From assembly GCA_048885705.1 (NCBI GenBank), contig JBHLLJ010000002.1, forward strand, positions 1,117 through 65,116: a DNA stretch of 64,000 nt, in the 5' to 3' direction. The stretch is from Candidatus Hermodarchaeota archaeon (GTDB lineage Archaea > Asgardarchaeota > Lokiarchaeia > Sigyniarchaeales > SOKP01). Positions 48,819 through 52,422 of this stretch are shown one piece after another (within the stretch, counting starts at the first letter, position 1; the number at the start of each line of letters is the position of its first letter). The notes below the pieces were generated by a model that was not told where the DNA came from, did not search any database, and worked only from the letters and a program-made list of their open reading frames with translations. The position numbers and the translations under genes are program-made.

Positions 48819-49613
48819 CTACTCAAATTTTCTTATTACTTCTATATTTAATATTTTTCCATCATCAAAAGAGATAATAGTATCAGCTAAATTTATTAAA
48901 TAATCATCATGTGTGGCGATTATGATTGTTCTAATATCATCTTTTAATTCTTTAAAAAGATCTCTAATAAATTGACTAGTTCTTTTATCTAGATTAGCTG
49001 TTGGCTCATCAGCTAAGATCATAGGCGGATTGTTTGCTAAAGCTCTTGCAATTGCAACTCTTTGTTGTTCTCCAGCAGAAAGTTGAAAAGGTAAATGTTC
49101 TCTTCGATCTAGGAGATTCATTTTTCTTAATAATTCTTCTGCACGTGATCTCTGTTCTTTAAAAGCTATACCAGTAAGGTTCATTGGAAACATTATATTT
49201 TCTTCAGCCGTGAGAGTACTAATAAGATTATAATTCTGAAAAATAAAACCAGTATTTAAAAGTCTCCACGTTGTTAGTGATTCTTCCTCCATATCTGAGA
49301 TTTTAACTCCGTAGGAATAAAGTATTCCTCGATTAGGTGAATCCAGGCCACCTATTAAATTTAATAATGTTGTTTTACCTGCACCACTAGGACCCTTGAT
49401 AACTAAAAATTCTCCATTGTGAATTGATAAAGATACATTGTCAACAGCCCGAACAATAAAGTCACCTATTTCATAATCTTTAAACAACTCTGCACAAACA
49501 ATCGCATATCTTGTGCTTATTTCTTTCAATGAATCAGCATTAGAGATAGTTTTATCTCCTTCAACTGATTTATCTTGTTTAATATTCTTTAGGGAATTAT
49601 CTATTTCTGGCAC
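48819..49613 (-). CDS. ABC transporter ATP-binding protein (MacB/LolD type)
   Basis: 264 aa with GPSGAGKTTL, LSAGEQQRVAIARAL and ILADEPTANLD. Confidence 0.85.
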   Translation of the reverse strand: MPEIDNSLKNIKQDKSVEGDKTISNADSLKEISTRYAIVCAELFKDYEIGDFIVRAVDNVSLSIHNGEFLVIKGPSGAGKTTLLNLIGGLDSPNRGILYSYGVKISDMEEESLTTWRLLNTGFIFQNYNLISTLTAEENIMFPMNLTGIAFKEQRSRAEELLRKMNLLDRREHLPFQLSAGEQQRVAIARALANNPPMILADEPTANLDKRTSQFIRDLFKELKDDIRTIIIATHDDYLINLADTIISFDDGKILNIEVIRKFE

Positions 49614-49790
49614 GATGTTTATAATTAATATTTATTTAAATCTTTAGTGTCGTTTTTTTCTAATTTTAGTGATAGTCTGGAAAATTATATACTATCAAAA
49701 TAAAAATTTCCTAAATTGGAATTACTGATATTGATTTCTTGAATACTTTAATTGTCAATTTTTAGATTTTTCTGCTGTTGGTAAATTAAG

Positions 49791-49798
49791 TTTAAATA
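49791..49798 (+). promoter_or_regulatory. TATA-box-like element positioned for a transcript starting at about 49821
   Basis: TTTAAATA preceded by purine-rich AAG. Its centre is about 26-27 nt upstream of the first base of helix P1 of the structured element. Confidence 0.4.
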
Positions 49799-49821
49799 CT
49801 TAAGTATCATAATTATACAAT

Positions 49822-49969
49822 AGAGGGAAGATTGAGAAAATACAAATAATATCCCCTAATGAAAAGTGGAATTCCCCTTTTCGTGGAATTTCCTAATTAA
49901 AATGGTAACTAAATTTTACAAAATCTCAAACAAATTTGTTGAGATTTTGAGTTTTTCTCATCTCCCTCT
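49822..49969 (+). ncRNA. Candidate ~150-nt structured RNA (three-helix junction) or cis-regulatory leader upstream of the corrinoid protein gene
   Basis: P1 is 49822-49840 (AGAGGGAAGATTGAGAAAA) paired with 49953-49969, 17 bp with two 1-nt bulges. P2 is 49868-49893 (GGAATTCC-9 nt-GGAATTTCC). P3 is 49920-49948 (AAAATCTCAAACAAATTTGTTGAGATTTT). A TATA box sits at about -27 and a T7 tract follows directly. Strand is assigned from promoter and terminator geometry only. Confidence 0.45.
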
Positions 49970-49972
49970 CTC

Positions 49973-49979
49973 TTTTTTT
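49973..49979 (+). terminator. Oligo-T (T7) tract immediately 3' of helix P1
   Basis: TCTTTTTTTA. Oligo-T tracts are the archaeal intrinsic termination signal. Confidence 0.4.
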
Positions 49980-50085
49980 ATAATTATTGAAACTAACTAA
50001 GATGGAGAATAAATTTTTTGTTAAAATAAGATTTAAAGGATAATTTTAATTTACTTTAGTATTAGTTAGCTTATTTATTTCGTAA

Positions 50086-50733
50086 ATGAAGGAGATATTT
50101 GTGGACTTTAAAAAATTAACTGAATTAGTAATTGAATTGGAAGTAGATGATATTGCAGATGCCGTAAAGGAAGCATTAAATGAAGGAAAGGATCCTTTTG
50201 ATATATTGGCCTCCTTAACAAAAGGAATGGATGAGGTTGGACGCCGTTATGAAGAAAAAGAATATTATTTGACAGAACTTGTTCTAGCTGGAGAAACAAT
50301 GAAGGAAGCCTTTAATATTTTAAAACCCGCCTTAGCCGCTTCAGATAAATCAGAAGATAAAGTGAAAATAATTCTTGCTACAGTTAAAGGAGATAATCAT
50401 GATATAGGAAAAAATATATTAGGATCCCTCCTCTTAAGTTCTGGATTTGAACTGTATGATTTGGGAATGGATGTTGATGAAAATGCAATCGTTGAAAAAG
50501 TAAAAGAAACAGGAGCCAGAATAGTTGCATTAAGTTCATTATTAACAATGACTGTAGAACATATCAAAGTTGTTCATGAAGCCTTACAAGTAGCAGGAGT
50601 TCGTGATAAAGTCAAATTAATTGTTGGAGGAGCGCCTTTGAATATGGAACTTGCTAAAAAGCTTGGAGCAGATGATTTTGCTGATGATGCAGTTGATGGC
50701 GTGAAACATATTAAAAAGCTTGCTGGAATATAA
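50086..50733 (+). CDS. Methyltransferase-cognate corrinoid protein (B12-binding, MtaC/MtbC/MttC-like)
   Basis: 215 aa with a helical cap domain and a Rossmann B12 domain carrying DxHxxG (GDNHDIGKN), SxL (LSSLLT) and GG (VGGAPL). The GTG at 50101, 6 nt after AAGGAG, is an alternative start. Confidence 0.8.
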   Translation: MKEIFVDFKKLTELVIELEVDDIADAVKEALNEGKDPFDILASLTKGMDEVGRRYEEKEYYLTELVLAGETMKEAFNILKPALAASDKSEDKVKIILATVKGDNHDIGKNILGSLLLSSGFELYDLGMDVDENAIVEKVKETGARIVALSSLLTMTVEHIKVVHEALQVAGVRDKVKLIVGGAPLNMELAKKLGADDFADDAVDGVKHIKKLAGI

Positions 50734-51222: not shown

Positions 51223-52422
51223 GTGGAAAAAATGAGTGTATATTTAGATTATCAAGCAGCTAAACCAGTGGACCCCCGTGTATTCGAAACTATGAAACCG
51301 TATTTTACCAAACGATTTGGAAATCCATCTTCATTGCATAATTATGGATATAATGCTACTAAGTCCTTAGAAGAAGCTCGAATTAGGGTTGCAAGTTTTA
51401 TTAATGCTCCAGATCCCGACAACATTATTTTTACTTCTGGAGCTACAGAATCAAATAATTTAGGAATAATTGGAGCAGCACTTCGAAATAAAAGAAAAGG
51501 AAATCATATTATTATCTCTGAGATTGAGCATATTTCCATACTAAATATTGGTAAATATTTAGAACAACAAGGATTTAAAGTAAGTAGAGTTCCTGTAGAC
51601 AGATTTGGAATTATTAACCTTGGTAAATTAGAGCGATTAATTACTGATCAAACAATTTTAATCTCGATTTCTACCGCTAGTAATGAAATCGGTTCAATTC
51701 AACCTGTAGAACAAATATCAGAACTTGCTCGAAAGAATAACATCTGGTTTCATTCGGATGCGGTAGCAAGCGAAAGTACAATACCAATTGATGTACAAAA
51801 AGTTCCTTTTGATTTATTGACGATATCTTCAAATGATATTTATGGCCCAAGAGGTGTAGGTGCTCTATACCTTAAAAAAGGTGTAAGAGTAAATCCTGTA
51901 CTTATTGGAGGGGGCCAAGAGAAGGGCATGAGGTCTGGATCAGAAAATATGTCTGGAATAATAGGCTTTGGCAAAGCAGCTGAAATAATGAGGTCAGAAA
52001 TAAATGAAGAAGCTGCTAGGTTAAAAATTCTTAGAGATAAATTAATTAGGGAAGTTTTAAAGATTCCTAAATCATATTTAAATGGGCATCCTGAGAAAAG
52101 GACGCCTCACAATGCTAATTTCCGGTTTGATTATATTGAAGGCGAATCATTGCTTCTATCCTTAAAGGATCAAAATATAGAGGTAGCAACGGGTTCTGCC
52201 TGTTCTTCGAAAACTCTAGAGCCATCTCACACACTTATTTCTTGTGGTTTATTACATGAGGAAGCACATGGAAGTTTATTATTAACTTTAGGGAGATATA
52301 CAGAAGAAAAAGATATTGATAAAATTATTGAAGTATTACCCGGAATAGTAAGAAAGTTAAGAATTTTATCACCACTTACACCTTCAGATTTATTAAAAAA
52401 ATTACAAGAGGAGGAAAATTAA
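51223..52422 (+). CDS. nifS: Cysteine desulfurase (NifS/IscS class)
   Basis: 399 aa with a GTG start. It has YLDYQAAKPVDPRV, the PLP region SSNDIYGPRGVGALY and the active-site loop GSACSS. Confidence 0.85.
   Translation: MEKMSVYLDYQAAKPVDPRVFETMKPYFTKRFGNPSSLHNYGYNATKSLEEARIRVASFINAPDPDNIIFTSGATESNNLGIIGAALRNKRKGNHIIISEIEHISILNIGKYLEQQGFKVSRVPVDRFGIINLGKLERLITDQTILISISTASNEIGSIQPVEQISELARKNNIWFHSDAVASESTIPIDVQKVPFDLLTISSNDIYGPRGVGALYLKKGVRVNPVLIGGGQEKGMRSGSENMSGIIGFGKAAEIMRSEINEEAARLKILRDKLIREVLKIPKSYLNGHPEKRTPHNANFRFDYIEGESLLLSLKDQNIEVATGSACSSKTLEPSHTLISCGLLHEEAHGSLLLTLGRYTEEKDIDKIIEVLPGIVRKLRILSPLTPSDLLKKLQEEEN

Follow-up and report, generated by a model that had tools for sequence, protein, structure and literature searches.

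The described RNAs that come closest to the element treated here, a predicted structured RNA encoded upstream of a corrinoid (B12-binding) protein gene in Candidatus Hermodarchaeota archaeon, fall into three groups. The C-rich-motif, trans-acting small RNAs (sRNAs) of Firmicutes, which comprise RsaE/RoxS and the UCCC-motif sRNAs of Staphylococcus aureus, are transcripts of ~100-150 nt with their own promoter and terminator and with unpaired C-rich motifs. SreA/SreB of Listeria and EutX/Rli55 of Enterococcus and Listeria, the latter with a B12 aptamer, contain or derive from riboswitches and act in trans; they are free-standing terminated transcripts in which conserved junctions are combined with covarying helices and optional peripheral hairpins, and they are associated with B12-related genes. 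The Y RNAs, together with their bacterial Y-like counterparts (YrlA), are also ~100-150 nt long, and have a long bulged end stem, a pyrimidine-rich and largely unpaired interior, and a 3' oligo-U. Apart from rRNA, tRNA, and guide RNAs, next to nothing is known of the regulatory or structural non-coding RNAs (ncRNAs) of Asgard archaea. The DNA analysed (the window) is a stretch of 64,000 nt, positions 1,117 to 65,116 of contig JBHLLJ010000002.1 (assembly GCA_048885705.1), and the predicted RNA element occupies positions 49823-49968 of its plus strand, where a terminal helix of 16-17 bp, P1, encloses the internal hairpins.

The element resembles each of these groups in part. In common with RsaE/RoxS it has its size, a promoter and terminator of its own, and unpaired C-rich motifs (UAUCCCC, UUUCCU, and UAUCCC) that could pair with a G-rich ribosome-binding site. 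It has, however, no sequence or Rfam relation to these sRNAs; its promoter and terminator are archaeal, its 5' and 3' ends are clamped by P1 in place of a terminal Rho-independent hairpin, and its target pairing is not significant across the family. The architecture of SreA/SreB and EutX/Rli55, the free-standing transcript, and the neighbourhood of a B12-related gene all have their counterpart here, but the element matches no aptamer model, lacks a B12 box, and has no ANTAR-type partner in its neighbourhood. The overall shape is also that of a Y RNA, although there is no Rfam Y_RNA match, no Ro-binding bulged helix was identified, a tRNA-like module is missing, and no Ro/TROVE gene is found among the adjoining genes (ABC transporter, corrinoid, TusA, IscS, and NifU), the only place considered. 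In its presumed way of working, the element is closest to a trans-encoded sRNA of bacteria or archaea, or to the RNA of a ribonucleoprotein. Likeness to RsaE/RoxS-type sRNAs or to Y RNAs does not establish membership in either.

The element is very probably a gene, and the type of an undescribed RNA family of Lokiarchaeia-type Asgard archaea. On balance, we lean towards a free-standing structured sRNA gene with a product of ~150-155 nt that acts in trans through its conserved core. Structure and covariation, the strand, conservation as a single copy at orthologous sites, promoter and terminator signals, and inversion of the whole unit in four loci are shown directly; the exact ends of the RNA, its action in trans, and its target are inferred. 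The element is not mobile, and a classical riboswitch leader is disfavoured. Because Asgard ncRNAs are essentially unexplored and this RNA is unusually well defined, its interest is moderately high. The family, backed by covariation, has a constant place next to an Fe-S/sulfur-relay operon and to the very highly conserved gene of a B12-binding protein. It provides a testable object for the RNA biology of Lokiarchaeia, with a model that Rfam could take up and a candidate for the control of corrinoid or Fe-S metabolism.

Secondary structure and covariation

The minimum free energy (MFE) of the RNA is -44.2 kcal/mol, while dinucleotide shuffles reach -26.7 +/- 3.6 kcal/mol (z = -4.9), and none of 200 shuffles was as stable; a fold beyond chance had been claimed in the original prediction, which was made from the sequence of the window. 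The prediction also described a 17-bp long-range helix enclosing two hairpins. The helix was confirmed as P1, which has 16 bp and two 1-nt bulges; a 17th pair, A49822:U49969, is peculiar to the window and lacks conservation. Of the two hairpins, the 29-nt palindrome is retained as P3. The other, formed by GGAATTCC and GGAATTTCC, gives way to GAAAAG..GG/CC..CUUUUC (Pa), which is favoured by both the MFE fold and the relatives. The coordinates of all parts are given in Table 1.

About 66 distinct family sequences were collected among ~85 related loci (designated L001, L002, etc.) from Lokiarchaeia-type Asgard genomes and metagenomes. MAFFT alone misaligned the 3' arms and the optional hairpins, and covariance models were therefore built from a 4-sequence seed (R1), with a second model from 30 sequences (R2). 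R1 gave 65 matches at E < 1e-3 and R2 gave 63 matches at E < 0.01 among 81 sources, in both cases exactly one per locus. For the window element itself, the full-length score is 73.7 bits under R1 and 111.3 bits under R2. In the 65-sequence model alignment, 93% of the cells hold standard pairs, a share that falls to 40-61% once the 3' partners are displaced by 1-3 columns. Changes on both sides are seen in 20 of the 26 modelled P1 and P3 pairs (7/10 for P3), with 102 compensatory cells, and 0/500 shuffles reach any of these measures. It must be held against these counts that they derive from an alignment fitted to the model, and are thus biased toward structure; for this reason, an alignment-free control was added. 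The distal P1 arms form duplexes of -7.05 kcal/mol with their own partners and of -5.28 +/- 0.28 kcal/mol with permuted ones (10,000 permutations; p <= 1e-4). RNAalifold predicted no pairs on the gappy model alignment. Both P1 and P3 covary strongly; an alignment upstream of orthologous corrinoid genes had been proposed in the original prediction as a check for covariation. The paired cells include 64 G-U and 33 A-C combinations. This excess, together with a TATA box and a T tract that are present only on the plus strand, indicates that the RNA is read from that strand.

The base of P1 is conserved in sequence, either as GAGGGAAG/CUUCCCUC or as GAGAGGAAG/CUUCUCUC, and its distal half is swapped wholesale among lineages with complementarity kept; examples of such complementary replacements are TCCTAGAA/TTCTAGGA (L063), GAATCAT/ATGATTC (L065), and GAATCG/CGATTC (L106). 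P3 is equally variable, with the forms AAAAUCUUA.., AGCC..GGCU, ACCUCA..UGAGGU, GACCC..GGGUC, and GCGGGC..GCCUGC. An unrelated hairpin stands at its site in eight loci (L045, L047, L073, L074, L077, L095, L106, and L112), and it is missing from L029. The alternative folds that were suspected from the complementary TTGAGA and TCTCAA segments of P1 and P3 are thus confined to the clade of the window. Further hairpins are optional and occupy three constant sites. Pa lies between CCCCUAA and GGAAUUUCC; it is absent from L005, L006, L028, L031, L040, L045, and the L077 type, is replaced by unrelated hairpins in L012, L017, and L112, and shows a compensatory change of G:C to A:U within the clade of the window, from GAAAAG/CUUUUC (window and L001) to GAAAAA/UUUUUC (L009, L010, and L052). 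Pb is inserted within AAUUAA^AAUGG (L011, L019, L035, L039, L089, and others), and Pc between the P1 5' arm and the first junction, J1.

The most conserved segments are those of a near-invariant, mostly unpaired, and pyrimidine-rich core of ~55 nt, which comprises AAUAUCCCCUAA, UUUCCUAAUUAAA, AUGGUAAC, and CUAAAUUUU(AUCCC); AUGGUAAC is missing in L055, L063, L065, L066, L070, and L091. In representative folds, minimal and divergent members all form P1 and P3 and leave most of the core unpaired (z from -2.7 to -5.1); the minimal natural variant is that of L006, at 118 nt. Within J2-J3, a 4-bp AAUU/AAUU mini-hairpin may present UCCU. It is present in the MFE folds of minimal variants, and lies beyond the reach of a covariation test because its sequence is invariant.

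Distribution and synteny

The exact 20-mer GAGGGAAGATTGAGAAAATA was matched 28 times in 185,579 species genomes. Twenty-three are the element; all of these are in Asgard metagenome-assembled genomes (MAGs), one per genome, and each with enough flanking sequence is located upstream of the corrinoid gene. The carriers include the closed 2.27-Mb chromosome CP070805.1 (bin132), which has been listed as Lokiarchaeota (PMC10833476, Table 1), and the ABR05/ABR06 MAGs, which have been given the same label (10.1101/2023.03.07.531504). The other five matches (L008, L015, L018, L023, and L024) are due to chance: they fall in coding sequence, either bacterial or DPANN, of MAGs that carry the labels Bacteroidetes, Omnitrophota, Aenigmarchaeota, and Rhodospirillales, and similarity stops at the 20 bases. 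The same 20-mer had no match in viral contigs. Within the 64-kb window, neither a repeat search nor the covariance model with its filters off revealed a second copy, the next-best match scoring 17 bits versus 73.6 for the element. Multiple copies per genome were to be the sign of a miniature inverted-repeat transposable element (MITE), which had been named as the main alternative.

Eighty metagenome loci were retrieved by means of the corrinoid protein, and hence independently of the RNA sequence. Among the 72 whose upstream sequence spans 300 nt or more, 63 carry the element, and the J1 12-mer AAUAUCCCCUAA occurs with at most one mismatch in the same number. Every copy lies between the ABC-transporter operon and the corrinoid/TusA/IscS operon. 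Corrinoid homologues in other contexts, where the upstream ABC gene is lacking, have no RNA either (L067, L076, L078, L083, L084, L107, and L109), while in L092 and L111 the ABC and corrinoid synteny is kept and the RNA is gone. In the close relatives L001-L006, the element is almost unchanged and the intergenic DNA upstream of its TATA box is divergent.

Two further loci look like decayed copies. In L103 (~900-1050), the 3' half with P3 and the P1 3' arm can be recognised and the 5' half is scrambled; in L069 (985-1058), P1 and AAUAUCCC are kept and J2/J3 are missing.

Transcription unit and orientation

Transcription in archaea terminates at oligo-T tracts. A TTTAWATA-like box whose first base precedes the first G of P1 by 30-33 nt is found in 64/66 distinct members, and at least five T residues start 4-10 nt past the last P1 pair in 62/66. 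In the window, the box lies ~31 nt upstream of P1, with a spacing of 24 nt between the two, and the T7 tract, which had been noted, begins after 4 nt (UCUC). Oligo-T tracts are described as archaeal terminators in a published report (PMC8716108). The dinucleotide before GAG is a pyrimidine-purine step, TA in 47/66 members and CA in 9/66. Taken together, these signals point to independent transcription, between a promoter and a terminator that belong to the RNA itself, and with the covariation and the lack of an Rfam match they bear out the earlier view of a novel sRNA unit. A scanner for sigma-70 promoters and hairpin terminators, which is not applicable to archaea, returned nothing meaningful.

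The RNA and the corrinoid gene share a strand in 59 of 63 loci, where the RNA lies 190-450 nt (mostly 207-302 nt) upstream of the gene. In L073, L089, L095, and L108, the whole unit of TATA box, RNA, and T tract is on the opposite strand with the intergenic site unchanged; the inverted units score 41.9, 46.3, 56.7, and 47.3 bits, respectively, with R2 (E 1.7e-5 to 1.7e-8). The ~90 nt that precede the corrinoid start in L089 and L108 are the same as in sister loci with the usual orientation. Since this sequence did not change when the RNA unit was inverted, the corrinoid gene has a control region of its own. The corrinoid 5' untranslated region (UTR) contains parts of the core in inverted copy, and these could have been the substrate of the inversions in the four loci.

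Conservation extends to the 22-nt spacer that separates the TATA box from the RNA start (49799-49821), which reads AAAGTATCATAWTTATA in the clade of the window and GTGCCATGTTAT in L077-type loci. Such conservation exceeds the needs of a basal promoter, and the spacer may hold a binding site for a regulator.

Table 1. Predicted features of the RNA gene and of the adjacent corrinoid gene, in window coordinates
Feature	Position	Strand	Description	Basis
Putative RNA promoter	49783..49798	+	Purine-rich AAATTAAG, like a B recognition element (BRE), then TATA box TTTAAATA (49791-49798)	Read from sequence
Probable transcription start	49822..49823	+	A49822 or G49823	Constant TATA-to-P1 spacing
P1 5' arm	49823..49840	+	GAGGGAAGAUUGAGAAAA, pairs with UUUUCUCAUCUCCCUC	MFE fold, covariance-model match, covariation
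J1	49841..49860	+	Unpaired; near-invariant AAUAUCCCCUAA (49848-49859)	Conservation
Pa	49861..49882	+	Optional lineage-specific hairpin GAAAAGUGG-AAUU-CCCCUUUUC	MFE fold, relatives
J2-J3	49887..49909	+	Near-invariant AAUUUCCUAAUUAAAAUGGUAAC	Conservation
J4	49909..49919	+	U-rich single strand CUAAAUUUUAC; most other lineages carry CUAAAUUUUAUCCC	
P3	49919..49949	+	29-nt palindrome (49920-49948) and closing C:G pair	MFE fold, covariation
P1 3' arm	49953..49968	+	UUUUCUCAUCUCCCUC	MFE fold, covariation
Tail and putative terminator	49969..49979	+	Pyrimidine tail UCUC, then T7 tract (49973-49979); probable RNA 3' end	Archaeal oligo-T terminator
Corrinoid promoter-like block	50020..50053	+	TTTAAAGG (50032-50039) flanked by inverted repeat TTAAAAT / ATTTTAA	Putative promoter role
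Corrinoid (B12-binding) protein gene	50101..50733	+	GTG start; AGGAGA at 50090-50095	Pfam B12-binding_2 and B12-binding

Comparison with known RNA families and motifs

None of the 4227 Rfam models reached its gathering threshold in the window or in any of 20 diverse loci; with the limit relaxed to E <= 10, the region 49600-50150 gave noise only. The cobalamin riboswitch models RF00174, RF01482, and RF01689 had no match under either condition, in agreement with the absence of a B12 box that had been noted. No tRNA or tmRNA was found in a scan of the window, and no published description of the element was found in the literature searched on ncRNAs, sRNAs, and riboswitches of Asgard archaea or Lokiarchaeota.

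Several motifs were considered and rejected. Matches to H/ACA guide RNAs are at the level of noise (19-22 bits versus gathering thresholds of 60-70), and no ACA follows P1. On inspection, neither P1 nor the base of Pa has the tandem G-A pairs on both strands that a C/D guide RNA or a K-turn would show, and a bulge-helix-bulge (BHB) motif was rejected in the same manner. The small open reading frame (ORF) that starts from the ATG in AUGGUAAC varies between 4 and 30 codons by lineage, with indels that are not multiples of three. No matching register exists for a triplex between the pyrimidine-rich junctions and the purine strand of P1. Likenesses to an Sm site (AAUUUUGU), to a 5' splice site (GGUAAGU; L040 and L101), and to a branch point (ACUAAC; L006 and L028) are probably due to chance in DNA of 27% GC.

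Proposed mode of action and alternatives

In the proposed mechanism, the RNA would be transcribed from its own TATA/BRE promoter, starting near 49822 and ending at the oligo-T near 49979. The purine:pyrimidine helix P1 would clamp its ends, with P3 and the optional Pa, Pb, and Pc as decoration. The helices would thus serve as scaffolding and the information would reside in the open pyrimidine-rich core, through which the RNA would work in trans. The target that we prefer is the adjacent corrinoid mRNA, whose purine-rich 5' UTR, Shine-Dalgarno sequence, and start region may pair with the C/U-rich core, and such pairing would control translation or stability. Antisense control of this neighbour is a tentative proposal.

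Pairing was evaluated for the translation-initiation region (TIR) of the corrinoid gene, taken as -45 to +12. The strongest duplex (-20.8 kcal/mol) is that of L073, where ~19 nt cover the ribosome-binding site and where pairing is possible only in trans, since the RNA gene is inverted. It is followed by L039 (-19.9 kcal/mol), with 12 perfectly matched nt (UAAUUAGGAAAU) and UUACCAU, by L052 (-19.7 kcal/mol), in which UUACCAUUUA pairs with J3, AGGAGA with UUUCCU, and GGAU with AUCC, and by L100 (-18.2 kcal/mol), with the same pattern as L052. When compared with 1000 shuffled cores, all four reach p <= 0.003. In many lineages, the ribosome-binding motif of the corrinoid gene is GGGGAUA or GGGAUAA, the complement of UAUCCCC, and the TusA genes of the same loci have the canonical GGAGG. 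Corrinoid TIR windows are within the best 10% of the windows of their own locus in 36% of cases; where the RNA is missing, the corrinoid homologues have no pairing excess (z = 0.06).

Several results weigh against this proposal. The four strong pairings were chosen after the fact, and the family-wide mean of -10.2 kcal/mol compares with -8.8 +/- 1.0 kcal/mol for dinucleotide-shuffled cores (z = -1.4, p ~0.1). Among the 59 ORFs of the window, the corrinoid TIR comes only 9th (-11.9 kcal/mol; AAUAUC-C-CCU to AGG-A-GAUAUU). The pairing register varies by lineage, and the duplexes of L077-type loci are weak (-7 to -9.5 kcal/mol). Purine-rich ribosome-binding sites also pair somewhat with a C/U core in general, the TusA TIRs averaging -8.1 kcal/mol versus a background of -7.0 kcal/mol. 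Finally, a long terminal stem and an invariant core of several segments fit a protein- or ligand-binding RNA equally well. Given the family-wide p value, antisense control of the neighbour is a lead and not a result, and we regard it and the binding of a protein or ligand as about equally likely. The complement of the J1 motif, TTAGGGGATATT, is not enriched in the window (13 matches versus 12 expected).

The strongest alternative is an autonomous structured RNA that does not act by base pairing, which we consider possible although not probable. Its core, with repeated C-UAA-UU units and a U-rich tract, would be a platform for a protein or a small molecule, and P1 would merely stabilise it; the RNA might be a component of a ribonucleoprotein (RNP) or a protein sponge, with Sm-like or KH proteins as conceivable binders. 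Invariant unpaired segments combined with covarying helices and with optional hairpins at fixed sites are typical of RNAs with tertiary or protein contacts, a long terminal stem and U tail are known from Y RNAs and other RNP RNAs, and the lack of family-wide significance in the antisense test also favours this explanation. However, no candidate gene for a partner travels with the RNA, whose neighbours are always the ABC transporter and corrinoid/TusA/IscS genes, there is no match to an Rfam family, and the core is universal only in part, as AUGGUAAC is absent in some lineages. The family would gain considerably in interest if its core proved to have a ligand, or a eukaryote-like RNA-binding protein, as its partner.

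Both activities might be joined in a sensor-regulator, an idea that we consider rather unlikely. The core would bind a metabolite (for example, a corrinoid or a sulfur- or iron-related compound) or an Sm-like/KH protein, and this would gate its pairing with the 5' UTR or ribosome-binding site of the corrinoid/TusA/IscS operon mRNA. If true, this would be a new class of trans-acting, riboswitch-like riboregulator, and the first that is native to the archaeal lineage closest to eukaryotes.

A further alternative, and one that we judge improbable, is a 5' leader of the corrinoid/TusA/IscS operon acting in cis, whether as a riboswitch or by binding a protein, with regulated termination at the T tract or with pairing of core and ribosome-binding site on a read-through transcript. 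The predominance of the same orientation in the 63 loci agrees with a leader, as do the multi-helix, aptamer-like architecture with its conserved junctions and the complementarity of the core to the ribosome-binding region in several lineages; even in the four inverted loci the RNA faces the ABC operon and arguably leads it. Invariant junction segments with covarying helices are, however, common also to many RNAs that are not riboswitches. The RNA's own T tract, the inversions, which leave the upstream block of the corrinoid gene as it was, and the separately conserved block with a TATA sequence between RNA and gene speak against a riboswitch leader that is co-transcribed with the gene. No alternative pairing is conserved, L029 does without P3, and the strongest complementarity between core and TIR is found in L073, where co-transcription is impossible. 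A P1 of 16-17 bp far exceeds the typical length of a switching helix. With no Rfam aptamer match, the cobalamin classes included, the riboswitch-like leader of the original prediction is disfavoured.

Only a slight chance is left to palindromic operators acting at the DNA level, with no functional RNA. The site between divergently transcribed operons, the palindromes GGAATTCC and P3, and a reverse strand that also folds well (z = -3.9) would suit this explanation, but an operator would conserve its sequence, whereas the helices keep their pairing through total sequence change and with more G-U than A-C. In addition, the P1 partners are 110-150 bp apart, and the element has a TATA box and a T tract of its own at fixed distances.

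A MITE whose terminal inverted repeats mimic a helix is refuted: the imperfect ~18-nt inverted termini around ~110 nt of AT-rich DNA are a resemblance only, and the element is excluded from this class because it occurs as one orthologous copy per genome, CP070805.1 included, has no target-site duplication (CAATA|GAGGG ... CCCTC|TCTCT), and has arms that change in the compensatory manner of an RNA and tolerate G-U, besides carrying a promoter and terminator and being missing from viral contigs.

Neighbouring genes and the corrinoid promoter block

The corrinoid gene is followed on the same strand by genes for TusA, a class-V aminotransferase (IscS-like), and a NifU-like protein, and an ABC ATPase/FtsX permease pair is located upstream in the divergent direction. 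The corrinoid protein shares 100% identity with P0001, a protein of 210 aa encoded in a MAG that is labelled Hermodarchaeota, and 87-95% identity with more than 100 proteins of Asgard MAGs. Its start is most likely the GTG at 50101 rather than the ATG at 50086 of the mechanically called ORF; relatives start with ATG/GTG-GAT-TTT at the matching place. With this start, the gene begins 121 nt after the T tract, and not 106 nt as was first given. Exact-protein lookup of the ATG-start and GTG-start proteins and of P0001 found no record. In loci L035-L114, identity of the corrinoid protein is 79-94%, versus 46-89% for the ABC ATPase, 60-92% for the IscS-like protein, and 63-91% for TusA (window genes compared: 50101-50733 versus 48819-49613 and 51223-52422). 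For a protein of 210 aa without an adjacent methyltransferase gene, the constraint is unusually strong. In L001, the NifU N-terminus appeared to be missing, and a selenocysteine was considered; this is an artefact of gene calling, as the full ORF of 266 aa is present.

The block upstream of the corrinoid gene, ATTAAAATAAGATTTAWAGGAWAATTTTAATTTA, is near-invariant ~78 nt before the start codon in the clade of the window, with its equivalent at this distance in L001-L033. The TATA-like box within it is bracketed by an 8-nt inverted repeat (ATTAAAAT/ATTTTAAT), and the block looks like the gene's own promoter with an operator over the TATA box. A different palindrome, TATCTTA-AG-TAAGATA, is conserved at this place in L077-type loci, where the equivalent block is kept whichever direction the RNA gene faces.

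In eight loci (L077, L079, L085, L088, L095, L097, L102, and L105), the start region AUGGAUUUU (~-25 to +9) is duplicated 12-16 nt upstream, which creates a short overlapping upstream ORF in L077 and an in-frame extension of four codons (MDFI-MDFEKL) in L088. On the minus strand of the window (49611-49641), the ABC ATPase ORF opens with a GTG that follows the start of a TTTAAATA box by only 28 nt. Because the TATA box is so close to this GTG, the mRNA of the ABC operon is probably leaderless, or else the start codon is located further in.

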